From NCBI GenBank assembly GCA_050287865.1, contig JBNKCS010000003.1, positions 1,711 to 25,710 on the forward strand: 24,000 bases of DNA, given 5' to 3'. The notes beneath the pieces are model-generated. The model worked only from the letters and a program-made list of their open reading frames with translations, searched no databases and was not told the origin of the DNA. The stretch's first letter is position 1. Each line of letters opens with the position of its first letter. Both the position numbers and the translations under genes were made by a program. Source of the stretch: Rhodocyclaceae bacterium (GTDB lineage: Bacteria > Pseudomonadota > Gammaproteobacteria > Burkholderiales > Rhodocyclaceae). Below, piece after piece: positions 3,138-24,000 of this stretch.

Positions 3138-3176
3138 AAACGGCCGCCCGATGAACCGGGCGGCCGTTTGTTTTTC
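3138..3176. terminator. Bidirectional rho-independent terminator between convergent rne and the phosphatase gene
   Basis: 13-bp stem AAACGGCCGCCCG / CGGGCGGCCGTTT (3138-3150 / 3157-3169) with loop atgaac. It is followed by GTTTTT on the plus strand and preceded by an A-run that gives a U-run on the minus strand. Confidence 0.7.
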
Positions 3177-3646
3177 TAGATTCGTTGCCGGATGTGATCC
3201 ACCAGTCCCTCGCACGCGTCCTCGATCATGTCCAGCACGCGTTCGAAACCGGCCGGACCGCCGTAATAAGGGTCCGGTACCTCGTCCTCCTGGGTATGCC
3301 GAGCGTAGTCGAGCAGCAATCCAAGCCGGTGCTGCTCCTCTTCCGGACACGCGTCGCGCAGCATGGCGAGATTGTCGCGATCCATGGCCAGTATCAGATC
3401 GAATCGCAAAAAGTCAGCCGTGGCGACACGCCGAGCCCGCAGTTTGCCCAACTCGTATCCGCGCTCGGCGGCCACTTTCCGGGAGCGGGGATCGGGAGGC
3501 TCCCCGACATGGTAGGCATGCGTTCCCGCCGAATCGATCTCCACTTCCTTGCTCAATCCGGCACGTTCGATTTGGGCGCGAAGCACGCCCTCGGCAGTCG
3601 GCGAACGACAGATATTGCCCATGCATACCACGAGTACTCTGAACAT
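3176..3646 (-). CDS. Low-molecular-weight protein-tyrosine phosphatase (arsenate-reductase/LMW-PTP fold)
   Basis: 156 aa from ATG at 3646 (MFRVLVVCMGNICRSPTAEG...). CX5R(S) P-loop CMGNICRS and D-loop VPDPYYG. AGAGGAA RBS. The longer 488-aa ORF in the track is an upstream extension antisense to the idh gene. Confidence 0.9.
   Translation of the reverse strand: MFRVLVVCMGNICRSPTAEGVLRAQIERAGLSKEVEIDSAGTHAYHVGEPPDPRSRKVAAERGYELGKLRARRVATADFLRFDLILAMDRDNLAMLRDACPEEEQHRLGLLLDYARHTQEDEVPDPYYGGPAGFERVLDMIEDACEGLVDHIRQRI
3410..3433 (-). repeat. Copy 1 of the 24-nt element (minus strand reads CGGCGTGTCGCCACGGCTGACTTT)
   Basis: Exact match to the consensus. Lies inside the phosphatase CDS in sense orientation, encoding RRVATADF. 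Shares an identical 23-mer (AGTCAGCCGTGGCGACACGCCGA) with copy 3. Confidence 0.85.
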
Positions 3647-3835
3647 GATTCCTCTAACAATCCGACGACTTTTCCGTGAAAACCCGACGCCAACGCTAGT
3701 TGCTACCGAATTCGGAATAGAATAGCAACCGATGATGTGGCGATCAGTACGAGTTATGCAACCGCGATGTTGCGCCGCCACACCGCTCAGACTTGGGCGG
3801 ACCAATAATAATCGACTGAAGCGGAGTCCCCAACA

Positions 3836-4873
3836 ATGAATGAACAGAAAGTCATTCCTGCGACACTGATTCCCGGCGATGGGATCGGTCCGGAAATCAC
3901 CGACGCAACCCTCATGGCACTCGATGCGCTTGGTGCTCCTTTTGAATGGGACCGTCAAACCGCCGGCGCAGCAGGCGTCGCGGCTTGCGGCGATCCACTG
4001 CCGTCCGCCTGTCTCGACAGCATCCGCCGGACCCGTTTGGCACTCAAGGGGCCGCTGGAAACACCGGTCGCCGGCGGCTATCGCTCCTCCAACGTCCGCC
4101 TGCGCGAGGAATTCAAGCTCTACGCCAACCTCCGCCCCGCGCGCACGATCGTTCCTGGCCGCTTCGACAACATCGATCTCGTCCTCGTGCGTGAAAACAA
4201 CGAAGGCCTCTATATGGGCTACGAGCATTTCATCCCGATCGACGGCGACCCGCATGCCGTCGGGATGGCCACGGGGATCAACACGCGCCAAGGCTGTCGC
4301 CGCATCTGCAAGTTCGCCTTCGAGTATGCCCTCGGACAAGGTCGCAAAAAAGTTACTGTCGTACACAAAGCCAACATCATGAAAGCGCTGACAGGTATCT
4401 TCCTGGAAACGGCGCGACAGATTTATGCCGAAGAGTACAAGGACAAGTTCATTTTGGAGGAAGTCATCGTCGACGCCTGCGCGATGAAACTGGTCATGAA
4501 TCCCTGGCAATTCGACGTGCTGGTGACGACCAATCTGTTCGGCGACATCCTTTCCGACGAAATCGCCGGTCTGGTAGGTGGCCTCGGCATGACGCCGGGA
4601 GCAAACATCGGCGAGCAGGCGGCGATATTCGAAGCCGTACACGGCTCCGCGCCGGACATCGCCGGCAAGGGCATCGCCAACCCTATCGCGCTAATGCTGG
4701 CCGCCGCGATGATGCTCGACCACGTTGGCCGTCTCGACCTGGGCAACCGGCTGCGTAAAGCGATCGACGAAACCCTGAACGTCGATCAGTTGCGCACTGG
4801 AGATCTGGGCGGAAAAGCCTCGACCGGCGAGTTTGCCGCCGCGCTGGTCAAGAGAATACAGGCCGGAGCCTGA
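3836..4873 (+). CDS. Isocitrate dehydrogenase, short IDH3-like (probably NAD-dependent) member of the isocitrate/isopropylmalate dehydrogenase family
   Basis: 345 aa. Motifs GDGIGPEI, SSNVRLREEFKLYANLRP, VHKANIMK and NLFGDILSDE are family signatures. Size and motif pattern resemble ~340-aa NAD-IDH rather than LeuB. Cofactor and substrate specificity are inferred. Confidence 0.72.
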   Translation: MNEQKVIPATLIPGDGIGPEITDATLMALDALGAPFEWDRQTAGAAGVAACGDPLPSACLDSIRRTRLALKGPLETPVAGGYRSSNVRLREEFKLYANLRPARTIVPGRFDNIDLVLVRENNEGLYMGYEHFIPIDGDPHAVGMATGINTRQGCRRICKFAFEYALGQGRKKVTVVHKANIMKALTGIFLETARQIYAEEYKDKFILEEVIVDACAMKLVMNPWQFDVLVTTNLFGDILSDEIAGLVGGLGMTPGANIGEQAAIFEAVHGSAPDIAGKGIANPIALMLAAAMMLDHVGRLDLGNRLRKAIDETLNVDQLRTGDLGGKASTGEFAAALVKRIQAGA

Positions 4874-4885
4874 TTCCAGAGGGCG

Positions 4886-5533
4886 CTAACGCCCCGTCGC
4901 GGCGATTCTGGTTCTGATTAGGCTGGCAATTTCGCTGTTGCCAGCCTTTTCGGCCAGTTCAACCGCGGTATTCCCCCGCAGATCGCCAACGCGCGCGTTT
5001 GCGCCAGCGTCCAAGAGGATCTTCACGATCATCCGGTGTCCGTTCCGTGCGGCGAGCATCAAGGCGGTGTTGTGATTGGGCGCACGGGCATTTACCTTGG
5101 CGCCCCAGGCGATCAGATCTCGGGCAATTTCATCATGTCCATTAAAGGCAGCGTAGTGGAGTGCCGTCCAGCCCGGACCATCGACCGGAACACCCCAGTG
5201 GAGCAAGCGACGAACCGTCGACTGGCGCCCATTGAGCGCAGCCAAAGCCAAAGCCGTATCTCCATATCTATTCTGTTTCAGTGCGTTAGCGTGATTTGCT
5301 AACAAGAAGTCTAGAAGTTCGTCGTTGCCATTGGTTGCCGCCATCATGGTGAGCGTGGTACCGGAGTGGTCGGCCGTGTCGATGTCCACTCCACGCTGCA
5401 CAAGGTCCACGACGGCTGTCGTCCTGTCATTGAGAGCTGCCGCAACGACGTCCTCGTAAGCGCCCGCGTGCGCCGCTCCCGCGCACCACAAAACCGCCAG
5501 AACACCCAGCCGGAAAATCATCGTTTTGAACAT
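4886..5533 (-). CDS. Secreted ankyrin-repeat protein
   Basis: 215 aa from ATG at 5533. Sec-type signal peptide MFKTMIFRLGVLAVLWCAGAAHA/G. Several tandem ankyrin repeats follow (e.g. GWTALHYAAFNGHDEIARDLIAWGA, NTALMLAARNGHRMIVKILLDAGA). The start is 2 nt after the tatD stop. Confidence 0.85.
   Translation of the reverse strand: MFKTMIFRLGVLAVLWCAGAAHAGAYEDVVAAALNDRTTAVVDLVQRGVDIDTADHSGTTLTMMAATNGNDELLDFLLANHANALKQNRYGDTALALAALNGRQSTVRRLLHWGVPVDGPGWTALHYAAFNGHDEIARDLIAWGAKVNARAPNHNTALMLAARNGHRMIVKILLDAGANARVGDLRGNTAVELAEKAGNSEIASLIRTRIAATGR
4920..4951 (+). terminator. Rho-independent terminator for idh, embedded in the 3-prime end of the convergent ankyrin CDS
   Basis: GGCTGGCAA (4921-4929), 8-nt loop, TTGCCAGCC (4938-4946), then TTTT. 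It lies 48 nt downstream of the idh stop. Confidence 0.6.
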
Positions 5534-5535
5534 TT

Positions 5536-6306
5536 TCAGTTCAGAACGACCCCGAAAAGACGACAAAAGTTCGCGGTGGTAGCCTCGGCGACGGCTTCGA
5601 ACGAAATCGACCTCAACTCGGCAATGTGCTGCGCGACATAGCGGACATATCCGGGTTCGTTCAATTTCCCCCGATACGGGACCGGTGCCAGATAGGGAGC
5701 GTCGGTTTCTACCAGCAGTCGGTCCAGTGGAAGTTCGGCGGCAACCTTCTTGAGTTCGCTCGCGTTCTTGAAGGTCACAATCCCGGAAAAGGAGACATGA
5801 AAGCCAAGGTCGAGGGCTTTCCGGGCGGTCGCCATGTCCTCCGTAAAACAATGAAACACACCCCCGACTTCGCCCGCGCGCTCTTCCTCAAGAATGCGCA
5901 GCGTATCTTCCTTCGCTTCCCGAGTATGGACAATCAAGGGCTTGCCGGTGATTCTGGCGGCCTCGATATGAACCCGAAAGCGTTCGCGCTGCCATTCCAG
6001 ATCGCCTTCAAGCCGATAGTAATCGAGCCCGGTTTCTCCGATAGCCACTACCTTCGGATCTTCGGCCAGACGAACCAGCGTCGCTACATCGACTTTCGCT
6101 TCCTGAGCTGTATCCGGGTGAACACCCGCTGCTCCGTAAATGTTCGGGTGGGAATGGACTATCCTGAGCACTTCCGGAAAGCGATCCAGCGTCACCCCGG
6201 CGCACAGTGCGGCGCCGACGCCCGCCGCCGCCATGCGATCGAGAATATGCGGCAAATTGGCCGCCAGCTCCGGAAAATCCAGATGACAGTGTGAATCAAC
6301 CAGCAT
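5536..6306 (-). CDS. TatD-family metal-dependent hydrolase/DNase (YcfH-like)
   Basis: 256 aa. MLVDSHCHLDF HxH motif and full-length TatD pattern. Position downstream of holB matches the E. coli tmk-holB-ycfH order. Confidence 0.9.
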   Translation of the reverse strand: MLVDSHCHLDFPELAANLPHILDRMAAAGVGAALCAGVTLDRFPEVLRIVHSHPNIYGAAGVHPDTAQEAKVDVATLVRLAEDPKVVAIGETGLDYYRLEGDLEWQRERFRVHIEAARITGKPLIVHTREAKEDTLRILEEERAGEVGGVFHCFTEDMATARKALDLGFHVSFSGIVTFKNASELKKVAAELPLDRLLVETDAPYLAPVPYRGKLNEPGYVRYVAQHIAELRSISFEAVAEATTANFCRLFGVVLN

Positions 6307-6311
6307 GCGGT

Positions 6312-6686
6312 TCAGAGGGTGTGGGTGGCGCGAGAGGAACTCAAATGACCGCCCAGGATGCCCTCGATTTTCTGCTGCACCGCCAGTCCGCTTTCATCAT
6401 TGGCAAACTGCACGCCGATCCCCTGCGCCTTGTTGCCTTGGCTGCCTTCAGGCGTCATCCAAACAACGCTTCCCGCGATGGGCAAACGGGCAGGTTCGTC
6501 CATCAGTGTCAGCAGAATGAATACTTCGTCGCCAAAGGCGTATTCGCGCGTGGTCGGAATAAACAGCCCACCCCGTTTGAGGAACGGCATATAGGCCGAG
6601 TAGAGGGCCGATTTTGAATTGATATTCAAGGAGAGGACGCTGGGCTTCGCGCCAGCGCTCTTCGATGCGGGTGCCGAATCGCTCAT
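6312..6686 (-). CDS. pilZ: Type IV pilus assembly protein PilZ (PilZ-domain protein)
   Basis: 124 aa. LSLNINSKSALYSAYMPFLKRGGLFIPT...GDEVFILLTLMDEP...VVWMTPEGSQGNKAQGIGVQF closely follows the Pseudomonas aeruginosa PilZ pattern. Its start overlaps the holB stop as ATGA, as in the Pseudomonas tmk-holB-pilZ cluster. Confidence 0.85.
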   Translation of the reverse strand: MSDSAPASKSAGAKPSVLSLNINSKSALYSAYMPFLKRGGLFIPTTREYAFGDEVFILLTLMDEPARLPIAGSVVWMTPEGSQGNKAQGIGVQFANDESGLAVQQKIEGILGGHLSSSRATHTL

Positions 6687-7726
6687 ATTCGTTCGCTCGC
6701 CAATGCACGCAAGTAACGCTCGGCGATATCCTCGAAGAATAACTGCGGGTTCAACGGATGGGACGCCAGTGACCGAGCTTTCATCAGTTCATTGTAACAA
6801 CGTAACAGGGCTCCCGCAGAAGCGTGGCCCGCCAGTTGACGAAGCGCATCCGCTCCACCACCGAGACGCGTGCGACCGGCCAGCTTGAAAAGAAGCAGAT
6901 CGAAGACCCACTTCTGGACCGTCTCGACAAAGGCCTGCATCGACAGTCCCCCATCGCTTTTCGGCTGCAATTGGGTCTGCCACCGCGCGGCCAATGCCAA
7001 AGGATCCCGGCCGGGATCCGCCAGGCTCGCCAGAACGCCGAGGTAAATCGAACCGCGTCCCGATTCGCTTGCCGCATGCGCCAGCAACGGTGCGTTACCA
7101 AGTAACGGCAGCAGCTTGATCGCCGTCTCGTCCCGTGTCTTGAGCCACGCCCGCGCTTCGCTTGACGAGGGACGGGGTAGCGGCAATTTCCGGCAGCGGC
7201 TCCGTATGGTCGGAAGAAGACGTCGCCAATGGCACGATATCAATATAAAATAAACACTTGACGGAGGTTCTTCGAGTATTTTAAGAAGAGCGTTCTGAGC
7301 CGGCTGATTCATGGCATCGGCGGGTTCCACGACGACCACGCGCGCACCGCTACGGTGTCCTCCGATAAAGACGAAGTCCTCCAAGGCCCGAATCTGGTCA
7401 ATCAAAATCTGCCGACTACCCGGCTTCTTGCGCTCCCCCTCCGAAGCCGTGCCTTCTATATCGACGTCGGCTTCGGGAATGACATGCCGAAAATCGGGAT
7501 GGTTGCCCGATGCAAACCAGCGGCAGGACGGACAGTTCCCACAGGCATCGCCCGAAGATGGCGTTTCGCACAAGAGCCGCGCCACCATCGCCATGGCGAA
7601 ACGACCCTTGCCTATTCCCTCCGAACCGGTAAGCAACAAGGCATGGGGCAAGCCGCCCTCGCCTGCCCAGAGCCGGCCCCATACGGGGTCGTGCCATTTA
7701 TATTGTTTTATATCAGATTGTTGCAA
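6683..7726 (-). CDS. holB: DNA polymerase III subunit delta-prime
   Basis: 347 aa. [12 protein letters not shown]-loop-like motif, CGNCPSCRW zinc module and [11 protein letters not shown] box. The start overlaps the tmk 3-prime end by 14 nt, so the exact start is somewhat uncertain. Confidence 0.85.
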
Positions 7727-8324
7727 TTATTTTTTCAAGTGATGCTTGAATTTCGCTAACGGACCGTGAGGCATCTACAAGCTGAATTCTGCCTCCACTT
7801 GCGGCGGCTCTCGCCAGATACTCGTCGCGAACGCGAGAAAAGAAATCCTGCTGTTCCCTTTCAAAGCGATCCAGATCCCGCCCCATGCCGGTCACGCGAC
7901 TCCTTGCCACATCGGGCGATAAATCGAACATCAGCGTCAAGTCCGGCTGCAGACCGTTCTGTACCCACTTTTCCAGGATTTCCAGCTTGCCTCGCTCCAA
8001 GCCGCGACCACCGCCTTGATAGGCAAAACTCGCATCCGTGAACCGGTCGCAGACCACCCAGTCGCCGCGCGCCAGCGCCGGGGCGATGACTTGGGCAATA
8101 TGCTCCCTTCGCGCGGCGAACATCAGCAGCGCCTCCGTTTCCAGATGCATCGAGTCGGCTAAAAGCAGCGCCCGCAGCTTCTCGCCCAGCGGCGTTCCAC
8201 CAGGCTCGCGGGTCTGAACCACGACGTGGCCGCGTGAGCGTAGTGTATCGACCAGCCAGGTCAAATGCGTGCTCTTGCCCGCCCCATCCAGGCCTTCCAG
8301 GGTAATGAACCGCCCGTGCGCCAC
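7713..8324 (-). CDS. tmk: Thymidylate kinase
   Basis: 203 aa. [15 protein letters not shown]-loop and full-length Tmk pattern. GTG start immediately after the mltG stop. Confidence 0.93.
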
Positions 8325-9329
8325 TCAATTTCCTCCCGTTTTCTTCTTCTGGTGCTGGGCCACGGCGCGATTATGCTCCTCGAGGGTTCGCGAAAACACG
8401 CTCGTGCCGTCGCCGCGAGCGACAAAGTACAGCATCTCGGACTGCGGTGGATGCAGCACAAGGTGAATGGATGCCTGCCCCGGCATGGAGATCGGGGTCG
8501 GCGGCAAACCGGGCCTCATATAGGTGTTGTACTCGCCGTCGGTCACCAGATCCCGCTTGCGCAAGTTTCCGTCAAATGCCTCACCCAAGCCGTAGATCAC
8601 CGTCGGATCGGTTTGCAACAGCATGCCGCGGCGCAGGCGATTGGTGAATACCGAGGCGACGAAGGGGCGATCTTCCGGCCGACCCGTTTCCTTTTCGACG
8701 ATCGAGGCCATGATCAGCGCTTGATAGGGATCTCCGTAAGGCACTGACACATCGCGATTTTCCCACTCAGATTCCAAACGCTGTCGCATGGTCTGGTAGG
8801 CCCGGCGCAAAACATCAAGGTCACTCGATCGTTTGGCGAAGAGATAGGTATCCGGGAAAAACAACCCTTCCGGGTGCGATTCCGTCGCGCCGATACGGGT
8901 CAGCACCTCACCGTCCGTGAGCCCCCTTGTATCGTGACGCAGGTTTGGATTGGCGTCCAGGACAGCACGTAGCTCCCGGAACGTTTTGCCCTCGACGAAC
9001 ACGATTTCGGCCTGCGAGACGTCCCCCCGGGTGATCCTGCGGAGGATTTCCCAAGGCGTTACGCCTTGCACCAACTCGTAGCTCCCCGCCTTGACCTCGC
9101 CCGCCTTGCCGGTAAACCGCCCGAGCCAGGTGAATTTCCAGGACTGAAATTCGACACCTGCCCTGGCAATCTCGTTGGCGGCGCCACGTAGGCCGGTCTT
9201 GGGGAAAATTTCGAATTCGAGCGGCGTCTTGACCAGCGAAACCGGCGTGAACGCAAACCAGGCCAGCCAGCCGGCAAAGCCGGCGACGACAAGAATTACA
9301 AAGGAAATCAGGCGTATGGTGAAGCGCAT
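8325..9329 (-). CDS. mltG: Endolytic murein transglycosylase MltG (YceG family)
   Basis: 334 aa from ATG at 9329 (MRFTIRLISFVILVVAGFAGWLAW, N-terminal TM anchor). YceG-like body (ASIVEKETGRPEDRPFVASVFTNRLRRGMLLQTDPTVIYG). The longer ORF start at 9422 would add a non-conserved extension. Confidence 0.9.
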   Translation of the reverse strand: MRFTIRLISFVILVVAGFAGWLAWFAFTPVSLVKTPLEFEIFPKTGLRGAANEIARAGVEFQSWKFTWLGRFTGKAGEVKAGSYELVQGVTPWEILRRITRGDVSQAEIVFVEGKTFRELRAVLDANPNLRHDTRGLTDGEVLTRIGATESHPEGLFFPDTYLFAKRSSDLDVLRRAYQTMRQRLESEWENRDVSVPYGDPYQALIMASIVEKETGRPEDRPFVASVFTNRLRRGMLLQTDPTVIYGLGEAFDGNLRKRDLVTDGEYNTYMRPGLPPTPISMPGQASIHLVLHPPQSEMLYFVARGDGTSVFSRTLEEHNRAVAQHQKKKTGGN

Positions 9330-9420
9330 CGAGTTCGCGGCAAGGGTGCCATGCCGGGCCTGCAAAGGAGGGCATAATAATACCCAGACACCCCATGAAA
9401 TGCTGTCGGAGAATACCAAC

Positions 9421-10440
9421 ATGAGCCTGACCCGCTGGACCGAATTTCTTGCTGCCCATCATCTGACGCCTGACGGCGAGAGCTTTGGCGACCTGACCGG
9501 CGAGCTCGCCGCCGCGCGGGAAGATGCCGTGCTGGCCCCGCTGACCGACTACGCAGTGATTCGCGCCCGTGGCGAAGACGCCGCCGAGTTCCTGCACAAC
9601 CTGCTCAGCAACGACATCAAGAACCTTCCGGCCGATGGCGTCCGGTTCGCCGGTCTTTGCACCCCGAAAGGCAGGCTGCTGGCGACATTTCACATCTGGC
9701 ACGACGGCCCGGACATCCTGCTTGCCCTTTCCGCGGACATCCAGCCGGCGATCCTGAAGCGCTTGTCGATGTACATCCTGCGCAGCAAGGTCACACTGAC
9801 CGACGCGAACCTTGCGCTCATCGGCCTGGCGGGACCGCAGGCAAAAGCCGTGGCGAGTGAGGCTTTCGGACACGCGCCTGAGACTATGAACGTCACCGAG
9901 GTTCCGGGTGGACAACTGCTCGGGCTGACCGGTCAACGCTACCTCCTTGCCCTGGCCCCGGAGGCCGCGATCGACGCTTGGCCAAAATTGACGGAGAAAG
10001 CCCGCCCAACAGGCGCCGCCACCTGGCGCTGGAGCGAGATCGCGGCCGGACAGCCGCGAGTCGTCCAGGCGACCCAGGAAGCCTTCGTGCCGCAGATGGT
10101 CAACATGGAGATTCCGGCCGTCGGCGGCGTCAGTTTCAACAAGGGCTGCTATCCAGGGCAGGAAATCGTCGCCCGCACGCAATATTTGGGCAAGGTGAAG
10201 CGCCGCATGTATCGGGCCAGGATGGATACCGCGCTGCCGCCGGGTACAGACGTCTTTACCCTGGAATCCGGCGACCAGCACTGCGGCGCCCTGGTGACTA
10301 CAGCTCCCTCCCCCGACGGCGGTTTCGAGTGCCTGGTGGTCGCCCAATCCTCTGGTGCCGAAGGCGCCGAGGTATTTGCGGGTGGCCCCGGCGTGCCGCC
10401 ACGGCTGACTTTGGGGACGCTGCCCTACACCCTCGACTGA
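9421..10440 (+). CDS. ygfZ: Folate-binding Fe-S cluster repair / tRNA-modification protein YgfZ (GcvT-like)
   Basis: 339 aa from ATG at 9421. Signature KGCYPGQE (NKGCYPGQEIVARTQYLGKVKRR) and GcvT-like N-terminal half. Confidence 0.85.
   Translation: MSLTRWTEFLAAHHLTPDGESFGDLTGELAAAREDAVLAPLTDYAVIRARGEDAAEFLHNLLSNDIKNLPADGVRFAGLCTPKGRLLATFHIWHDGPDILLALSADIQPAILKRLSMYILRSKVTLTDANLALIGLAGPQAKAVASEAFGHAPETMNVTEVPGGQLLGLTGQRYLLALAPEAAIDAWPKLTEKARPTGAATWRWSEIAAGQPRVVQATQEAFVPQMVNMEIPAVGGVSFNKGCYPGQEIVARTQYLGKVKRRMYRARMDTALPPGTDVFTLESGDQHCGALVTTAPSPDGGFECLVVAQSSGAEGAEVFAGGPGVPPRLTLGTLPYTLD
10389..10412 (+). repeat. Copy 2 of the 24-nt element (CGGCGTGCCGCCACGGCTGACTTT)
   Basis: Lies inside the ygfZ 3-prime end in sense orientation, in a different frame from copy 1; it encodes GVPPRLTL. 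Confidence 0.85.
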
Positions 10441-11210
10441 TGTGCCTGATTCTCGTCGCCTGGGAGGCGCACCCCGACTACCCGCTGGTGGTCGCCGCCA
10501 ACCGCGACGAGTTCTTCAGCCGCCCGACCGCCCCGGCCTCGTTTTGGGGCGACGGAGAGATATTGGCAGGGCGCGATTTGCAGAGTGGCGGCACGTGGAT
10601 GGGCGTGACCCGCTCCGGCCGCTTCGCGGCGCTGACCAACTTCCGCGACCCAGGCCTGCATAGTGAAAACCGGGCGTCCCGAGGCAAGCTGGTCGCCGGT
10701 TTCCTTGAAGCGGACGAAGCGCCGCTGACGTGGCTCGAACAGAGGCGTGCCGAAGCGGACCACTACAATCCGTTCAATCTTCTTGTCGGCGACCGAAGTT
10801 CGCTGGCTTGCTATTCGAGTGTCAGCCACGAACTGCTGCCCTTGGGTCCAGGCATCTACGGCCTGTCCAACCATTTGCTCGACACACCCTGGCCGAAAGT
10901 TCAGGCCGCGAAGTCGTCGCTCTCCCTGGCATTGGCCGCCCTGCCCGACACCGCGCCCCTGTTCGAACTGTTGCGCGACGATGCGATCCATGCCGACACG
11001 GCGCTGCCGCGCACCGGCGTCGGTCTGGAATGGGAACGGCTGCTGTCGGCGGCCTTCGTCAAGGCACCAGGCTATGGCACCCGCAGCTCGACGGTTCTGA
11101 TAGTCAGCCGTGGCGACACGCCGATATTCGACGAGCAGACCTGGCTCGAAGGGGGAATAGCGGGCGGCCGCAGCCGCTTCCGCTTCAAGCGGTCAAACGC
11201 CGCCTCATGA
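10440..11210 (+). CDS. NRDE-family protein (DUF833 / TANGO2-like)
   Basis: 256 aa. MCLILVAW...VVAANRDEF motif. The ATG overlaps the ygfZ TGA by 1 nt (cTGATGt). Confidence 0.8.
   Translation: MCLILVAWEAHPDYPLVVAANRDEFFSRPTAPASFWGDGEILAGRDLQSGGTWMGVTRSGRFAALTNFRDPGLHSENRASRGKLVAGFLEADEAPLTWLEQRRAEADHYNPFNLLVGDRSSLACYSSVSHELLPLGPGIYGLSNHLLDTPWPKVQAAKSSLSLALAALPDTAPLFELLRDDAIHADTALPRTGVGLEWERLLSAAFVKAPGYGTRSSTVLIVSRGDTPIFDEQTWLEGGIAGGRSRFRFKRSNAAS
11100..11123 (-). repeat. Copy 3 of the 24-nt element (minus strand reads CGGCGTGTCGCCACGGCTGACTAT)
   Basis: 23/24 match to the consensus; only the TTT tail differs. It lies inside the NRDE-family CDS in antisense orientation, where the plus strand encodes IVSRGDTP. 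Confidence 0.85.
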
Positions 11211-12081
11211 GGACGTGCGAAATTCCTGCCTCGACGAACTCCTCACCTTCCCGGATGAAGTCGAAACGCCGATAGAACGGTTCGGCCGATATCTGCGCAT
11301 GGAGGGCGACTTGCCCGATACTGCGCTGTCGCGCGGCTTCCATCAGGTGCAGCAAAAGCAAGGTGCCGACCCCTTTGCCGCGCCAGTCCTTCAGGACCGC
11401 CATACGTCCGATACGGCCGTCGGGCAGCAGGCGTCCGGTACCGATGGCGCGGCCATCTGGACCGCGCGCCACGGCATGATGACTGAGCGCATCCCAGCGA
11501 TCCCACTCCATTTCGACGGGAACCCCCTGCTCGCCGACAAAGACCGCATGGCGGATCGGCCCGGCCAACGGCCCCAGTTGCTCCCAATCGGCGTCCTCGA
11601 CACCAAATTCCACGATATCCACGGGCGTGTACGGCGGCACGAGATCGAAGAGTTCGACGATATCGCGGTTGCGCATGCGGATACAGCCGATCGAACCCGG
11701 ACGGCCCATTTCGACGATATCCGGACTGCCATGGATGTAGATATAGCGACGCATCGTATCGACCTGCCCCAGCCGGTTGATGCCCGGTTCGCACCCCGAC
11801 AACCAAAGAATCCGGGTCAATATCCAGTCGCGCCCCGGATGAGTCGCCGCGAGATCCGGCGACCATATCTCGCCGGTCGGCCGCCGCCGGACGAACACGG
11901 AATTCTCCGGCGCGCCCGCTCCAATCTTGGCGCGAACGACGTGCCGTCCGCGTGGTGTCCTGAAGCTGCCGTTGATTTCGCCCACACCATTGGCTGCAGT
12001 CGAGACTGGATATCGCCGTAAAAAAGTTGAATTATTATATAATTCAACTTGTTGAAACGGTATATTAATCCAGATTCTCAT
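11185..12081 (-). CDS. Fusion protein: N-terminal YkuD-type L,D-transpeptidase catalytic domain plus C-terminal GNAT N-acetyltransferase domain, no signal peptide
   Basis: 298 aa. YkuD signature YIYIHGSP...GSIGCIRMRNRDIVELF (His...Cys catalytic pair) in aa ~1-150. GNAT pattern RMAVLKDWRGKGVGTLLL...AQISAEPFYRRFDF...GISHVLM in aa ~155-298. The N-terminus MRIWINIPFQQVELYNN has no hydrophobic signal. The ATG directly abuts the tadA stop. Confidence 0.8.
   Translation of the reverse strand: MRIWINIPFQQVELYNNSTFLRRYPVSTAANGVGEINGSFRTPRGRHVVRAKIGAGAPENSVFVRRRPTGEIWSPDLAATHPGRDWILTRILWLSGCEPGINRLGQVDTMRRYIYIHGSPDIVEMGRPGSIGCIRMRNRDIVELFDLVPPYTPVDIVEFGVEDADWEQLGPLAGPIRHAVFVGEQGVPVEMEWDRWDALSHHAVARGPDGRAIGTGRLLPDGRIGRMAVLKDWRGKGVGTLLLLHLMEAARQRSIGQVALHAQISAEPFYRRFDFIREGEEFVEAGISHVLMRRRLTA
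12025..12049 (-). terminator. AT-rich perfect 11-bp inverted repeat with T6 tail (terminator-like or operator-like), inside the 5-prime end of the YkuD-GNAT ORF
   Basis: The minus strand reads AGTTGAATTAT-ata-ATAATTCAACT followed by TTTTTA, 33 nt downstream of the tadA stop. It sits in a ~55-nt AT-rich island within otherwise GC-rich DNA. Confidence 0.4.
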
Positions 12082-13137: not shown

Positions 13138-15915
13138 TTACTTGCCGGCATGCTTCAGTTGCGCCTGAGCCGCCGCCAACCGGGCAATCGGCACACGTGG
13201 GCCGGAGCACGAAACGTAGGTCAGTCCGATTTCGTGGCAGAACTCGATGGAAGCGGGGTGGCCGCCGTGTTCGCCGCAAATGCCGATCTTGAGTTCGGGG
13301 TTCGTTTCGCGTCCCAACCTGACCGCAATCTTCATGACTTCGCCAACACCCTTCTGATCGAGTACCTCAAACGGATTGTCCTGCAATATGCCGGTCTCGT
13401 TATACGCGGGTAAGAACTTGTTTTCCGCGTCTTCACGTGAGAATGAGAAAGTCGCCTGGGTCAGGTCATTGGTGCCGAACGAGAAAAACTCGGCCATTTT
13501 CGCCATGCGCCCGGCACGCATGCAGGCCCGGACCACTTCGAGCATGGAACCGAACTTGAACTGGACGTCGATACCCTGGGTCAGCTCGACAATCTTGTGG
13601 ATTCGGTCGACGTAACTCTTGATACGCTCCAGTTCCTCAACGGTCGCCACCTGCGGCACCATGATTTCCGGATTGACGGCGATACCTTCCCTGGCACACA
13701 AAGCGGCCGCTTCGAGAACCGCCTGGATCTGCATCGAGTAGATTTCCGGATAGGTGATACCGAGCCGGACGCCGCGATGGCCAAGCATCGGATTCACCTC
13801 CGCCATGGCGCGTACTTTGCGCAGCGTCTTTTCCTTCTTGACGATGACGTCGTCTTCGAGGTGCGACTCCTTGAAGACATCCAGCGCTTCGTTAAGGCGA
13901 CCCAGTCCGTCGGCGTACTTCTGATGCAGGGCTGGATTGAGGAGTTTGAGCGTTTCCGGCAGCTCCTCGATACCCTTGATGGTGTCCTTCAGGTGCCGCA
14001 GATGGGTAATTTCGAGTTCCAGTTGCGCCGCCGTCGGCAGGAATTCATGCATCGGCGGATCGAGCAGGCGCACCGTCACCGGCAAGCCCTTCATGGCCTT
14101 GAAGATACCCTTGAAATCGTTTCGCTGAATGGGCAGCAGGCGATCCAGCGCCGCCTGACGTTCTTCCAGCGATTCGGCGAGGATCATCTCCTGAACGATG
14201 GGCAGGCGGTCGGTGCTGTTGAACATGCGTTCGGTACGGCAAAGACCGATGCCCTTGGCGCCGAAAGCACGTGCCTTGGCGGCATCGGTCGGCGTATCGG
14301 CGTTGGCGCGGACTTCCAGGCGCGCGACTTCGTCGGCCCAGTCGAGCAACACATTCAGTTCAGGAGAAAACTCCGGCTCGACAGTCGGCACTTCGCCTGA
14401 ATAGACGTGACCGGTACCGCCGTCGATGGTCACGACATCGCCTTCGTGCAGCGTCGTATCGCCGATCGTCGCCTTGCGCATCACATCGTCGATATGAATG
14501 GCTTCGCAGCCGGAAACACAGGGCTTACCCATGCCGCGCGCAACGACCGCCGCATGCGAGGTCTTGCCGCCTCGGCTGGTGAGAATGCCTTGGGCCTGGA
14601 AGAAGCCATGGATGTCCTCGGGCTTGGTTTCCTCGCGAACCAGAATGATCTTTTCCCCGGCACGGCCGCGAATTTCGGCAGTGTCGGCATCGAAAACGAT
14701 ATGGCCCGACGCCGCGCCAGGCGATGCGGGCAGCCCCTGGGCGAGCGATTTACCCTTGAAACTGGGCGCCAGCTGCGGCACAAGCAATTGCTCGAGGACT
14801 GCCGGCTCGACCCGCAACAACGCCTTCTCGCGCGTAATGAGACCATCATTGGCCATTTCCACCGATGTACGCACCATCGCACGCGCATTCATCTTGCCGT
14901 TTCGCGTCTGCAGGCAATAGAGCTTGCCTTTCTCGATAGTGAACTCGAAGTCCTGAACTTCCTTGTAGTGGGACTCCAGGCGATTGTGCAACTCAATCAA
15001 CTGCGCGTAGATCTCCGGCATTTCGGCTGCCATGTCGGCGATCGGCTTTGGCGTACGAATGCCGGCGACGACATCCTCGCCTTGGGCATTGACCAGATAT
15101 TCACCATAAATCTGATTCTCGCCGGTACCCGGATTACGCGTAAATCCGACGCCGGTGCCGGAGTCGTTGCCCATGTTGCCGAAAACCATGGTGCAAACGT
15201 TGACCGCCGTGCCGTTGGCCATGGCCGGCGTGATCCTGAACTGCTTGCGATAGTCGATCGCGCGCTTGCCGTTCCACGAGCGGAAGACTGCCTTGAGCGA
15301 AATTTCCAGCTGTTCGTATGGATCCTGCGGAAACGGCTTCCCGGACTGGGCGAGCACAATGGCCAAAAATGCCTCAGTCAGTTCCTTGAGGTGCTCGGCC
15401 TTGAGATCCACGTCCTGACGGGCCGCATACTTGGTCTTGATCTCCGCCATCTTTTCGTCGAAATGCTCGTCCGAGATGTTCAGGGCGATTTTCCCGAAGA
15501 GCTGGATGAAACGCCGATAGGCATCCCAGGCAAAACGTTCGTTCTTGGTCTGCTTGATGAGTCCCTTGATCGACTCCTCATTCAGCCCCAGATTGAGGAT
15601 GGTATCCATCATGCCCGGCATCGACATCGCGGAGCCGGAACGAACCGAAACCAGCAGGGGGTTTTCGTTGGAGCCGAAACCCTTGCCCGTCTTCTTCTCA
15701 AGATCGGCCACGTACTGCTTGATGGTTTCCCAGAGCCCGTTGGGCAGGTTTCCTTTTTCGAGATAGGCAAGACAGGCCTCGGTACTGACCGTAAAACCGG
15801 GCGGGACCGCCAGGCCGATCTGGGTCATTTCGCAAAGATTAGCCCCCTTGCCACCCAGAAGCAGCTTGTTCTTGCCGTCACCTTCCTCGAAAGAAAACAC
15901 GTACTGCTTGACCAT
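13138..15915 (-). CDS. ppdK: Pyruvate, phosphate dikinase
   Basis: 925 aa. N-terminus GGKGANLCEMT. Catalytic-His motif TSRGGKTSHAAVVARGMG. PEP-utilising C-terminal domain (GLCRTERMF, GICGEHGGHP). Confidence 0.95.
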   Translation of the reverse strand: MVKQYVFSFEEGDGKNKLLLGGKGANLCEMTQIGLAVPPGFTVSTEACLAYLEKGNLPNGLWETIKQYVADLEKKTGKGFGSNENPLLVSVRSGSAMSMPGMMDTILNLGLNEESIKGLIKQTKNERFAWDAYRRFIQLFGKIALNISDEHFDEKMAEIKTKYAARQDVDLKAEHLKELTEAFLAIVLAQSGKPFPQDPYEQLEISLKAVFRSWNGKRAIDYRKQFRITPAMANGTAVNVCTMVFGNMGNDSGTGVGFTRNPGTGENQIYGEYLVNAQGEDVVAGIRTPKPIADMAAEMPEIYAQLIELHNRLESHYKEVQDFEFTIEKGKLYCLQTRNGKMNARAMVRTSVEMANDGLITREKALLRVEPAVLEQLLVPQLAPSFKGKSLAQGLPASPGAASGHIVFDADTAEIRGRAGEKIILVREETKPEDIHGFFQAQGILTSRGGKTSHAAVVARGMGKPCVSGCEAIHIDDVMRKATIGDTTLHEGDVVTIDGGTGHVYSGEVPTVEPEFSPELNVLLDWADEVARLEVRANADTPTDAAKARAFGAKGIGLCRTERMFNSTDRLPIVQEMILAESLEERQAALDRLLPIQRNDFKGIFKAMKGLPVTVRLLDPPMHEFLPTAAQLELEITHLRHLKDTIKGIEELPETLKLLNPALHQKYADGLGRLNEALDVFKESHLEDDVIVKKEKTLRKVRAMAEVNPMLGHRGVRLGITYPEIYSMQIQAVLEAAALCAREGIAVNPEIMVPQVATVEELERIKSYVDRIHKIVELTQGIDVQFKFGSMLEVVRACMRAGRMAKMAEFFSFGTNDLTQATFSFSREDAENKFLPAYNETGILQDNPFEVLDQKGVGEVMKIAVRLGRETNPELKIGICGEHGGHPASIEFCHEIGLTYVSCSGPRVPIARLAAAQAQLKHAGK

Positions 15916-16096
15916 GACCGCTCCCTCAGACTGTGTGAATTATCTTGAAAACATAGCAGAAACTCGGCCTTCCGGGTACTGCTCTTTGTCAAAAGAAGCG
16001 CCTTTGCCGGTACTCAGGCACGCCGATGGTGCTATGCCACTGAAGGAGTTAGTATTCGTCTTCCCCTTCAACAACTCGCGCAATCTTCCGACCGCC

Positions 16097-16645
16097 ATGA
16101 AATATCGCAAACCTGTACTGAGCTCCCTGCTGACCTCTTTCCTCGTATGCGGCATCGGCCTTGCCGGCTGCATGACCAACGAGAGCAAGCCCTCCGAACC
16201 GGCGCAACAAGCGCAGCCAGCGTCCAAGAAAGCCGAGGCACCTGCCCCGGTCGCGGCTGCGCCGATGGCAAATGGCCAATACGATCTTTCCCGCAACAAG
16301 CCTGTCACCGACTCGAGCACAGTCGAGGCCGGAAAGGGCACCCTGGTCAAGGGTATCAACGACTGGGAAGGTGAAATTTCCGGAATCCCGGCACGGGGAA
16401 GCAAGTTCACCAAGCTCAAGATCGGCATGTCAACCGACGAGGTTTTCCGTTTAATCGGGCAGCCGTCGGGCATGTCGAGCTACCCAACGGGCAAGGCACA
16501 CATTCCGTTCTACCACGGAGCCGATCGCTGGCGCCAAGAAGCAATCTACAAAGGCCAAGGCCGCCTGATTTTCTCCCAGCAAGGGGGGTGGGGTGCGTCG
16601 GAATTCAACCTGATCTGGATCATTCACAGCGCCAACGAGAAGTGA
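16097..16645 (+). CDS. Lipoprotein of unknown function (possible SmpA/OmlA-BamE-like C-terminal domain)
   Basis: 182 aa from ATG at 16097. Signal peptide plus lipobox LAGC. Low-complexity Ala/Pro/Gln linker. LKIGMSTDEVFRLIGQP resembles the SmpA/OmlA motif. The ORF-track start at 15848 is an upstream extension. Confidence 0.7.
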   Translation: MKYRKPVLSSLLTSFLVCGIGLAGCMTNESKPSEPAQQAQPASKKAEAPAPVAAAPMANGQYDLSRNKPVTDSSTVEAGKGTLVKGINDWEGEISGIPARGSKFTKLKIGMSTDEVFRLIGQPSGMSSYPTGKAHIPFYHGADRWRQEAIYKGQGRLIFSQQGGWGASEFNLIWIIHSANEK

Positions 16646-16669: not shown

Positions 16670-16693
16670 CGGCGTATCGCCACGGCTGACTTT
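16670..16693 (+). repeat. Copy 4 of the 24-nt element (CGGCGTATCGCCACGGCTGACTTT)
   Basis: Intergenic. It starts 25 nt after the lipoprotein stop and ends 4 nt before a 10-bp GC hairpin. Confidence 0.85.
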
Positions 16694-16697
16694 CTGG

Positions 16698-21124: not shown

Positions 21125-21172
21125 GTCGCTTCGCTGGATTAGAATCCTTTGATTCTATCCCGCGTCCGTACC

Positions 21173-21622
21173 ATGAGCATCGTCGACAACAAGAAGGCCT
21201 TTCACGACTACTTCATCGAGGAGCGGTTCGAGGCCGGACTGACACTCGAAGGCTGGGAAGCCAAGTCGATCCGCGCCGGTCGGGCGCAGATCAAGGAGGC
21301 CTACGTCGTCGTCAAGGACGGCGAAATCTTCCTGATCGGCGCTCACATCAGCCCGCTTGCCCAAGCGTCGACGCATGTAAGCCACGACCCGGTTCGTACG
21401 CGCAAGCTGCTGCTGCATGCGCGCGAGATAAGCAAGCTGATCGGCAAGGTCGAACGCGCCGGTTACGCGCTGGTACCGCTCGACCTGCATTTCGCCAAGG
21501 GCCGGGTCAAGGTCGAAATCGGCCTGGCCAAAGGGAAGAAGCAATACGACAAGCGCGAAACCGAGAAACAGAAGGACTGGGTACGCGAAAAGGCTCGCAT
21601 GATGCGGTCCGCCGCCCGATAG
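21173..21622 (+). CDS. smpB: SsrA-binding protein SmpB
   Basis: 149 aa from ATG at 21173 ([17 protein letters not shown]...), full-length SmpB pattern. The TTG at 21149 in the ORF track is an unlikely extension. Confidence 0.93.
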
Positions 21623-21633
21623 CCTCTTGCAGG

Positions 21634-21657
21634 TGGCGTACCGCCACGGCTGACTTT
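21634..21657 (+). repeat. Copy 5 of the 24-nt element (TGGCGTACCGCCACGGCTGACTTT)
   Basis: Intergenic, starting 12 nt after the smpB stop. Its GGCTGAC segment pairs with GTCAGCC at 21662-21668. Confidence 0.85.
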
Positions 21658-21668
21658 TCGCGTCAGCC
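21648..21668. terminator. Weak 7-bp hairpin GGCTGAC-ttttcgc-GTCAGCC between convergent smpB and the SPFH gene
   Basis: Read directly from the sequence. The left arm is part of repeat copy 5 and the right arm overlaps the SPFH stop codon. There is no strong U-run on either strand. Confidence 0.35.
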
Positions 21669-22517
21669 CAGCTTGCCCAGCAGGCCGCGTACGGTTTCCT
21701 GAATATCCGCTGGCAGCAGGATCGTCTTGGCGTTTTGCGAATCAGCCAACTTGCTCATCGCGGTAATGTACTTCTCGCCGAGCATGTAACGCATCGGCGC
21801 CTCCTCCGTCCCGATGGCGGCAGTCACACGTTTGATAGCCTCGGCGCTTGCCGTTGCCAATGTAACGGCAGCATTGGCATCGCGCTGGGCCGATTCCAGC
21901 CGCGCTTCGGCCTGCAGGATCATCGACTGTTTTTCGCCCTCGGCCTGGGTCACCATGGCCTTGCGCTGACGCTCGGCTGCCGCCTGCATTTCCATGGCCT
22001 TCTGCATCGACGGCGACGGGTTAATATCCTGAATCTCGACCGATTTGACGGTCAGTCCCCAATCGATGGCTTCGTCGGAGATGCTTTCGCGCAGACGCGC
22101 CTTGATCTTGTCGCGGTTCGAGAGGGCCTCGTCGAGCTGCATTTCGCCGACGATGGACCGCAGCGTGGTCATGATCAGGTTGCGGATCGCCTCGGAAAAA
22201 TCGGTCACACCGTAGACCGCCTTGATCGGGTCGGTCACCTTGATGAAGGCGATGGCGTTGGTCAGGATCACCGCGTTGTCACGGGTAATGACCTCCTGCT
22301 CCTGCACATCGAGGATGATGTCCTTGGTGACAAGCTGATAAGCGACGCGATCAAGATAGGGAAGGATGATGTTAAGCCCAGGATGCAGCGTACTGTGGTA
22401 TTTGCCCAGACGCTCGACTATCCATTCCGTGCCCTGGGGAACGATGCGCACGCCCTTGAGCAGGGTGATAACGGCAAAAGCGATCAGCGCAACGACAACG
22501 ATAAAACCTTCGGTCAT
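21663..22517 (-). CDS. SPFH/band-7 (stomatin/paraslipin-like) membrane protein
   Basis: 284 aa. N-terminal TM helix, then an SPFH domain (GVRIVPQGTEWIVERLGKY...TRDNAVILTNAIAFIKV...) and an Ala/Gln-rich coiled coil. The start overlaps the NfeD stop (ATGA). Confidence 0.9.
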   Translation of the reverse strand: MTEGFIVVVALIAFAVITLLKGVRIVPQGTEWIVERLGKYHSTLHPGLNIILPYLDRVAYQLVTKDIILDVQEQEVITRDNAVILTNAIAFIKVTDPIKAVYGVTDFSEAIRNLIMTTLRSIVGEMQLDEALSNRDKIKARLRESISDEAIDWGLTVKSVEIQDINPSPSMQKAMEMQAAAERQRKAMVTQAEGEKQSMILQAEARLESAQRDANAAVTLATASAEAIKRVTAAIGTEEAPMRYMLGEKYITAMSKLADSQNAKTILLPADIQETVRGLLGKLG

Positions 22518-22982: not shown

Positions 22983-24000
22983 TTATTTGTTGGCCAGTTT
23001 AAGCCAAGTATCCACCACTGTATCAGGGTTGAGGGAAATGCTCTGGATGCCTTGCTCCATCAGCCACTCGGCGAAATCGGCATGATCCGAGGGCCCCTGC
23101 CCGCAGATGCCGACATACTTCCCGAGCCGATTGGCGGTCGAAATCGCCATCGACAATAACTGCTTGACGGCGGGGTCGCGCTCGTCGAAGGCGTGCGCTA
23201 CCAACCCGGAGTCGCGATCGAGGCCAAGCGTCAGTTGCGTCAGATCGTTCGAGCCGATCGAGAAGCCGTCGAAGATTTCCAGAAACTGCTCCGCCAGCAG
23301 CGCGTTGGACGGAATCTCGCACATCATGATCAGGCGCAGTCCGTTCTCGCCCTGCTTGAGCCCATTTTCCGCCAACAAGTCGACAACGGCCCTGCCCTCT
23401 TCCAGATTGCGTACGAAGGGCACCATCAGTTCGACGTTGGTCAACCCGAGTTCGTTGCGCACCTTCTTCATGGCCCGGCATTCGAGTTCGAAGCAGTCGC
23501 GGAAGGAATGGGCGACATAGCGCGATGCACCGCGGAAACCCAACATCGGGTTTTCCTCCTCCGGCTCGAAAATGTCTCCGCCGAGCAACTTGCGGTACTC
23601 GTTCGACTTGAAATCGGACAGTCGCACGATCACGGGCTTCGGGTAGAACGCGGCGGCAATAGTGGCGACACCTTCGACCAGCTTCTCGACGAAGAAACCC
23701 TCCGGGCTGGCATAACCGCGCGCGCGACGGGAAATCTCGTCCCGCAGATTTTCCTTCATTTCGGAGAACTCGAGAATGGCTTTCGGGTGCACACCGATCA
23801 TGTTGTTGATGACAAACTCGACGCGCGCCAGGCCGACTCCGGCGTTCGGCGTCTGCGCAAACTCGAAGGCCAATTCGGGATTACCGACGTTCATCATGAC
23901 CTTCAAAGTCAGCGGTGGCAGCACGCCGACATCCTGGCTCGATATCTCATATTCGAGCGCACCGCGATAGACGTGGCCGGTATCGCCCTCGGCGCAACTG
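22983..24000 (-). CDS. ppsA: Phosphoenolpyruvate synthase, C-terminal part (5-prime end lies beyond the window)
   Basis: LKVMMNVGNPELAFEFAQTPNAGVGLARVEFVINNMIGVHP, GSNDLTQLTLGLDRDS and GICGQGPSD match the PpsA C-terminal PEP-utilising domain. The frame stays open to 24000 (CAEGDTGHVYRGALEYEISSQDVGV precedes the track M, which is an internal GTG). Confidence 0.93.
   Translation of the reverse strand, partial: SCAEGDTGHVYRGALEYEISSQDVGVLPPLTLKVMMNVGNPELAFEFAQTPNAGVGLARVEFVINNMIGVHPKAILEFSEMKENLRDEISRRARGYASPEGFFVEKLVEGVATIAAAFYPKPVIVRLSDFKSNEYRKLLGGDIFEPEEENPMLGFRGASRYVAHSFRDCFELECRAMKKVRNELGLTNVELMVPFVRNLEEGRAVVDLLAENGLKQGENGLRLIMMCEIPSNALLAEQFLEIFDGFSIGSNDLTQLTLGLDRDSGLVAHAFDERDPAVKQLLSMAISTANRLGKYVGICGQGPSDHADFAEWLMEQGIQSISLNPDTVVDTWLKLANK
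23905..23928 (-). repeat. Copy 6 (diverged, 21/24) of the 24-nt element (minus strand reads CGGCGTGCTGCCACCGCTGACTTT)
   Basis: Lies inside ppsA in sense orientation, in the same frame as copy 2. It encodes GVLPPLTL, versus GVPPRLTL in ygfZ. Confidence 0.55.

Follow-up and report, generated by a model that had tools for sequence, protein, structure and literature searches.

The DNA uptake sequence (DUS; GCCGTCTGAA and dialects) of the Neisseriaceae is bound by the minor pilin ComP, its dedicated receptor, and the uptake signal sequence (USS) of the Pasteurellaceae, a 9-nt core with AT-rich flanks that together span about 29 nt, has a predicted receptor in ComN. Uptake signals have been described only for these two families (bioRxiv 10.1101/2025.10.24.684340; PMC2817400), and our literature search found no paper linking them to the Rhodocyclaceae. 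Herein, we describe a 25-nt word present in a 24,000-nt stretch of DNA from a Rhodocyclaceae bacterium (GenBank assembly GCA_050287865.1, contig JBNKCS010000003.1, positions 1,711 to 25,710; hereafter the window). An earlier note, made from the window alone, had treated its copies as an element of that stretch; the element is real, and its scale proved to be genome- and genus-wide, beyond what the note saw. The tract in the window is best explained as one copy of a genus-specific DNA tag that is defined at the level of the double strand.

A 25-nt word is hyper-abundant in the genome

The source genome that holds the window (G000) is a metagenome-assembled genome (MAG) of 1.89 Mb in 289 contigs, 71% complete and with 62.6% GC. 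One word tops its 10-, 12- and 14-mer spectra by a wide margin, and likewise the 10- to 14-mers of its closest relative, G004 (87% nucleotide identity). The word, YGGCGTRYCGCCACGGCTGACTTTT, is 25 nt long and sharply bounded. A logo drawn from the copies of its 14-mer core in G000 gave the consensus Y-GGCGT-RY-CGCCACGGCTGAC-TTTT, in which two strongly conserved blocks, 5' GGCGT and 3' GGCTGA[C/G]TTT, stand around a more variable middle. The borders in the logo are sharp and the flanks featureless and random, with neither target duplication nor conserved ends to be seen in them.

If up to 3 mismatches are tolerated across the 21 fixed positions, G000 contains 457 copies, which are divided evenly between the plus (227) and minus (230) strands. 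The 14-mer core, CGCCACGGCTGACT, is found without mismatch at 241 sites, where base composition predicts 0.04, and 392 sites match it with at most one mismatch. Hyper-abundance in both orientations, one of the properties by which DUS and USS are recognised, is thus a property of the word. In the window itself, 13 matches with up to 3 mismatches were found where 4.1 were expected, and none of 100 shuffles reached 13. In 400 kb of contig C17 of G004, 114 copies were counted (about 1 per 3.5 kb; 48 plus, 66 minus). Their spacing is exponential, that is, random (median 2.39 kb, mean 3.45 kb), and the largest word-free gaps tend to lower GC.

The word is built by substitution and held at the DNA level

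The retention of the word was assessed between G000 and G004 at 27 orthologous ungapped sites with 40-nt flanks. The 21 fixed positions diverge by 2.3% and the flanks by 13.9%, a 6-fold lower divergence inside the word, and the variable RY positions diverge by 30% and 7%. Since about five gapped or one-sided sites were excluded, this retention is to be read as high but not absolute. The proposal of the earlier note that conservation is at the DNA and not the protein level is borne out by these values.

Twenty-two further coding sites were then compared with orthologues in two word-poor congeners, G015 and G002. The peptides are 36% identical within the word and 72% identical in its flanks, in agreement with the view that a force acts on the nucleotide word itself and that the host proteins tolerate the resulting peptide. 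Eighteen of the 22 sites showed no length change, and the remaining four carried gaps of 2-7 residues. Given that the fixed positions diverge less than the flanks, that most sites are free of indels and that the peptides differ, we conclude that the word is built in place by substitution and is held at the DNA level even where the proteins change.

Six copies were located in the window by repeat search and pattern search; the 25-nt spans were taken from the printed sequence, and the host genes were assigned by Pfam.

Copy 1: 3409..3433, minus strand; in a low-molecular-weight phosphotyrosine phosphatase gene (about 3176-3646, minus); sense; RRVATADF
Copy 2: 10389..10413, plus strand; in ygfZ (folate-binding GCV_T family; about 9502-10440, plus); sense; GVPPRLTL, 9 residues from the C-terminus
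Copy 3: 11099..11123, minus strand; in a TANGO2/NRDE-family gene (about 10440-11210, plus); antisense; the gene reads IVSRGDTP
Copy 4: 16670..16694, plus strand; intergenic, between the convergent ORF 15848-16645 (plus) and guaA 16728-18305 (minus)
Copy 5: 21634..21658, plus strand; intergenic, between the convergent ORF 21149-21622 (plus) and an SPFH/Band 7 gene 21663-22517 (minus)
Copy 6: 23904..23928, minus strand; diverged or partial, in a PEP-utilising enzyme (ppsA-like) gene; sense, in the ygfZ frame; GVLPPLTL

Translation reproduced the four coding copies (ORF, open reading frame, in the list above) with the frames and peptides that had been reported for them, and the two intergenic copies are additional. 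The 14-mer core is exact in five of the six. The ygfZ copy covers residues 297-304 of 312, in a frame shifted by 1 nt relative to the phosphatase copy; the NRDE copy covers residues 221-228 of 256, and its T-run is interrupted (ACTAT). Of 10 word-rich congeners compared, 9 carry the NRDE copy at the orthologous site; the two word-poor congeners in the comparison and the outgroups lack it. Copy 4 lies directly 5' of a 10-bp GC hairpin, and in copy 5 GGCTGAC pairs with a flanking GTCAGCC. Copy 6 keeps the 5' GGCGT and 3' CTGACTTT blocks.

For all four host proteins, relatives that lack the word encode different peptides at the word site. The phosphatase of word-poor congeners reads RRVKDADF (CGG CGC GTC AAG GAC GCC GAC TTC), and that of G000 and G004 reads RRVATADF (CGG CGT GTC GCC ACG/ACC GCT GAC TTT). 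The site has thus undergone two amino-acid replacements together with synonymous changes, every one of them towards the word, and no indel. In ygfZ, the outgroup and family consensus G-PRLxF has become GVPPRLTL, with one extra codon in the word-bearing clade, and in the NRDE protein a variable turn, LLxDxxGxxxF, has become IVSRGDTPIF. In ppsA, G(x)LPPLP(L/V) has become GVLPPLTL; the invariant LPP was retained and only the codons on either side were converted, so that the middle of copy 6 remains unconverted because the conserved LPP holds it back. The phosphatase and ppsA sites changed stepwise from an earlier partial match, and intermediate states occur in other species.

As a separate observation, one word on contig C52 of G000 is split by a 24-nt insertion exactly at the variable RY position, and the orthologous copy in G004 is intact.

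Placement and reading frames of the copies

Genes were called with a simple codon-bias ORF model of our own and not with a standard gene finder (about 1,600 ORFs, 86% of G000), so the coding and non-coding counts carry roughly 10% uncertainty. On this basis, 217 copies (47%) lie outside ORFs or across their ends, in 14% of the genome, which corresponds to a density about 5-fold higher in non-coding DNA. Ninety-five of these 217 start 0-30 nt past a stop codon, and among them the two orientations with respect to the gene are equally frequent. The other 240 copies lie inside ORFs, and at least 172 of them are confidently coding, with a coding signal on both sides. The 172 are read in the following frames.

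Sense 0: GV[PS]PRLTF, 49 copies
Sense 1: RRxATADF, 21 copies
Sense 2 (contains TGA): no peptide, 0 copies
Antisense 0: KVSRGxTP, 59 copies
Antisense 1: SQPWRxA, 12 copies
Antisense 2: KSAVAxR, 31 copies

All five stop-free frames are used, and the TGA frame serves only as the gene's own stop codon, in 9 genes. The three contexts described in the earlier note are among these five. Frame, placement and substitution-origin features of this kind have been reported for DUS and USS (PMC2817400; bioRxiv 10.1101/2025.10.24.684340), and the coding copies of the word share them: several frames are used, stop frames are avoided, the residues affected are poorly conserved, and the copies originate by point substitution. 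The earlier note had placed the ygfZ and NRDE copies near the C-termini of their proteins. Both are indeed C-terminal, but the tendency is not general, since 7% of the coding copies in G000 lie within 60 nt of the stop codon against 5.8% expected.

Copies are mostly single, with one fused inverted pair (G000:C87:1193-1230). In this pair, two words stand head to head and share their GGCG/CGCC part, so that they fold into a perfect hairpin of 18 bp (-37 kcal/mol, z = -7.6) with A/T runs on its flanks; judged by its sequence, the pair looks like a bidirectional intrinsic terminator in architecture.

At G000:C266:181-310 and C14:21683-21745 the word is repeated in tandem in intergenic DNA, with a period of 35-37 nt (4 and 2 copies). 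A 104-nt composite repeat consists of a word, a conserved spacer of about 80 nt with a TAACCGGC...GCCGGTTA hairpin and a second word, all in the same orientation. Its sites are G000:C2:43710-43837, C5:28380-28506 and C20:11348-11579, plus C10, C27, C47 and C95; G000 has 8 spacer copies, those in C20 in tandem. Rfam gave no match on the composite units or in the window. In appearance the unit resembles NIME/dRS3 blocks or a small miniature inverted-repeat transposable element. Some local duplication of the word, in the form of the tandem arrays and the eight 104-nt units, does exist.

Distribution of the word within and beyond the genus

The host belongs to an uncultured genus of the Rhodocyclaceae that is known only from MAGs; its neighbours among the MAGs bear the labels Rhodocyclaceae bacterium or Sterolibacterium sp. 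Of the 17 genomes that GTDB places in the genus, twelve (G000, G003-G008 and G010-G014) contain 200-740 copies and five (G001, G002, G009, G015 and G016) only 8-23, with up to 3 mismatches allowed. No exact match to the 16-mer was present in 24 genomes from other genera of the family and order, and a pattern tolerant of dialects found 0-8 copies per genome in 198 genomes from 88 other genera of the family. The word is confined to one genus-level clade. Within it, G010 and G011 have consensus spellings of their own, GGCGTGTTACGACGGCTGAGTTTC and GGCGTACCACCGnGGCTGACTTT, in which the outer two blocks are kept and the middle drifts. Restriction to a lineage combined with dialects, another property by which DUS and USS are recognised, is therefore seen here as well.

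In a tree of five proteins, the word-poor G002 and G015 fall among the word-rich genomes, with weak support, and the simplest history of the word in the genus is one gain followed by losses. By k-mer counts, no replacement word was found in 200 kb of G015 or in the stretch of G002 analysed. The latter (G002:C2:100001-300000) contains a CRISPR array of about 72 repeats that dominates the k-mer spectrum, and the CRISPR repeat is the only repeated word there.

A few genomes of other genera hold 1-3 canonical copies (G230:C71:2509-4098; G083, 3 sites; G099:C35:5989), which look like transfer or binning carry-over. The two G230 copies are identical in sequence and in their 1,567-nt spacing to a pair in the word-bearing genus (G012:C1:433026/434593), a match that points to either a recent transfer from that genus or contamination of the MAG with its DNA. 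G060, from another genus of the family, has eight matches to the 3' CGGCTGACTTT part only (6 plus, 2 minus), and these may represent a weak, different dialect in a neighbouring genus.

Elsewhere in the window, one ORF (11185-12081, minus) joins a YkuD L,D-transpeptidase domain and a GNAT acetyltransferase domain.

A possible tag for biased DNA uptake or transfer

In this environmental betaproteobacterial genus, about 0.6% of the genome is given over to a single 25-nt word, and protein sequences have been rewritten for it. Whatever the force, it prevails over amino-acid preference at hundreds of sites. We infer this force to be biased DNA uptake or transfer, and our tentative choice, held with somewhat less than even confidence, is that the word is an uptake or transfer-bias tag like DUS and USS. 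By analogy it would work as they do, and we do not file it as a member of either. This reading is ranked first, ahead of a binding site for a chromosomal protein, because the genomic behaviour of the word matches that published for DUS and USS in its reading frames, avoidance of the stop frame, permissive residues, origin by substitution, dialects and, apparently, position at gene ends and terminators.

Under such a mechanism, a step in DNA exchange, be it uptake through a receptor on the cell surface or a different transfer step with a sequence bias, would favour fragments that bear the word. Homologous recombination would then fix mutations that improve the match (molecular drive), and purifying selection on the proteins would limit the word to permissive positions and stop-free frames. 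The word would build up wherever the genome tolerates it and would then be kept.

Parts of a competence apparatus are encoded in the host. G000 has ComEC and type IV pilins, with four pilins classed as non-T2SS, and its fimT-pilVWX cluster includes a PF16732 (ComP_DUS-type) minor pilin. Several observations nevertheless weigh against an uptake or transfer tag. The word is highly specific throughout its 25 nt, about twice the length of a DUS; its density of about 1 per 3.5-4 kb is below that of DUS and USS (about 1 per kb); its spacing is random and not even; and natural transformation appears not to be documented for the genus. The machinery does not follow the word either: ComEC and DprA are present in all five congeners tested, word-rich or word-poor alike, and the PF16732 pilin is encoded by 38 of 41 genomes from the order, regardless of whether they carry the word. 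Word-rich and word-poor genomes cannot be told apart by the identity of two candidate pilins. One, a 174-aa orphan pilin, is present in the word-poor G001 and G002 and missing from the word-bearing G010, and the other, PilE-like, shows no split between rich and poor genomes. With neither comEC and dprA nor these pilins tracking the word, no candidate for a receptor emerges.

A further point on the same side is that an HHH_3 search of the 16 other genomes of the genus (G001-G016) revealed no ComEA-type protein. Its matches above the family cut-off were long, Tex-sized ORFs (452-871 aa) and one marginal 27-bit match in G016; applied to the order at large, the same search picked up small ComEA-like ORFs in 9 other genera. 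There are transformable Gram-negative bacteria that lack ComEA or need it only weakly. The absence of ComEA counts against canonical transformation and is not decisive.

A bolder proposal, which we consider possible but doubtful, is that the word represents a third, independently evolved family of uptake (self-recognition) signals: a long, bipartite 25-nt tag with dialects, with a receptor unrelated to or diverged from ComP, operating without ComEA, and lost without replacement in several lineages. Since the force has been switched off in some of the sister lineages, these offer a natural comparison in which to look for the gene behind it. For practical purposes, the word provides a clean marker when bins of the genus are built or checked for contamination, its word-free regions are candidate recent gene transfers, and it is a candidate handle for the genetic tractability of these uncultured bacteria.

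Alternative explanations

The alternative that survives best is that each copy is a high-affinity site of an abundant, lineage-specific chromosomal DNA-binding protein (nucleoid-organising, self-marking or roadblock), kept by selection at each site and not by transfer bias. We consider this unlikely, if well worth weighing. A long, information-rich and apparently bipartite motif (GGCGT ... GGCTGAsTTT) whose middle drifts across dialects would fit a protein with two DNA contacts, and the strand symmetry, the strong conservation at the DNA level, the gathering of copies at gene ends and the missing ComEA are all consistent with such a site. However, about 40% of the copies lie within genes, at a cost in amino-acid changes; the spacing is random, with no regional pattern; and five congeners live without the word, with no replacement in those examined (G015 and G002). 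The sites known to serve in site-specific chromosome organisation (parS, matS, SlmA and Noc sites) number in the tens and not 450-740, and no candidate protein was identified.

It is improbable that the word was left behind by, or forms the end of, a tiny mobile or templated-insertion element spread by copy-and-paste, perhaps related to the 104-nt units and tandem arrays. The eightfold word-spacer-word unit in G000, the arrays with their 35-37-nt period, the 2-7-residue gaps at four of the 22 orthologous coding sites and the copy split by a 24-nt insertion would all suit an element of this kind. Yet the 18 remaining coding sites kept their length, the phosphatase and ppsA sites changed stepwise by substitution with intermediates in other species, and the flanks lack target duplications and conserved ends. 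In addition, with its 25 nt the word is not long enough to encode or imitate the ends of known transposons, and viral contigs give no matches beyond chance. Copy-and-paste insertion is not the main mode of spread.

Still further down stands a context-specific mutation or repair bias, similar to very-short-patch repair, that makes and keeps the word without any transfer or binding function. Substitutions directed towards the word and low divergence inside it are what such a bias would leave, but known repair biases act on 4-6-nt contexts, which cannot specify about 21 positions, and the sharp borders and the single dominant word speak against it; we hold it to be very improbable. Convergence of peptides through protein constraint and codon bias, the case that the earlier note had named as contrary to its own proposal, deserves practically no credence: some sites did begin from a partly matching peptide (RRV..ADF in the phosphatase, G.PRL in ygfZ and G.LPPL in ppsA), but it is refuted by frame usage (one word read in five frames on both strands, with nearly half of the copies non-coding), by the site histories, in which word-less orthologues encode different peptides, by the in-word divergence, with synonymous positions conserved, and by the peptide identity at the 22 sites, and the same peptides encoded by unrelated codons in distant taxa were not seen in the orthologue comparison.

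Three other candidates were rejected. A hairpin or RNA element is contradicted by the internal GGCG/CGCC stem, which has only 4 bp and is no better than shuffles (-3.6 kcal/mol, z = -0.69), by its absence from the G010 dialect, by the lack of an Rfam match, and by the symmetric orientation of the word relative to genes. A replication-polar motif is contradicted by the lack of any relation to GC skew and by neighbours co-oriented in 62 of 113 cases (the 400 kb of G004 C17). A phage-borne or mobile origin is contradicted by a mere 24 single 16-mer matches in 2.9 million viral contigs, roughly chance by our own rough estimate, none of which has the 5' GGCGT block in register.

Comparison with known systems

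We return to the uptake or transfer-bias tag, and to how the word stands beside described repeats and tags. Chi and KOPS are 8-mers strongly co-oriented with replication. Like them, the word is an over-represented chromosomal word tolerated in coding DNA; unlike them, it has no replication polarity, and the co-orientation that characterises these motifs was not found. REP/BIME elements and the NIME/dRS3 repeats of Neisseria are short dispersed repeats enriched downstream of genes, REP and dRS3 being extragenic and palindromic. The 104-nt word-spacer-word units recall RS blocks flanked by dRS3. However, the word is frequent inside genes (at least 172 copies), its 4-bp hairpin is weak and missing from the G010 dialect, and it lacks the extragenic stable hairpin of REP/RAYT elements. 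HIP1 (GCGATCGC) of cyanobacteria is an 8-nt palindrome; it shares with the word hyper-abundance, presence in coding and non-coding DNA and conservation at the DNA level, but the word is 25 nt long and asymmetric.

The word comes closer to the USS, with a similar overall length and a T-run at its end. Both are read in several frames, fall on poorly conserved residues and arise by point mutation and not by insertion (USS: PMC2817400). They differ in that all 23 defined positions of the word are strongly conserved, against a core with weak flanks in the USS, and in that the host of the word is GC-rich and from another taxon, the word having no helically phased flanks.

The DUS differs from the word in length (10-12 nt against 25 nt), in density (about 1 per kb against about 1 per 4 kb) and in its inverted pairs, the word occurring mostly in single copies; moreover, no ComEA (ComE) homologue was found in the word-bearing genus, and its PF16732 pilin is order-wide and does not track the word. 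The hosts of the DUS and of the word belong to the same GTDB order, and a PF16732-type pilin is encoded in the host of the word. Both tags are hyper-abundant, non-palindromic, present on both strands and specific to a lineage, with species dialects. The CTGA core that they have in common is a lead and not a test. Both avoid frames with a stop codon. The DUS is enriched at the 3' ends of genes and at terminators, which its inverted pairs can form; the word appears to share this placement, with many copies just past stop codons and one fused inverted pair that resembles a terminator. The share of copies within ORFs is 38-52% for the word and 34.5% for the DUS of N. meningitidis (PMC2817400).

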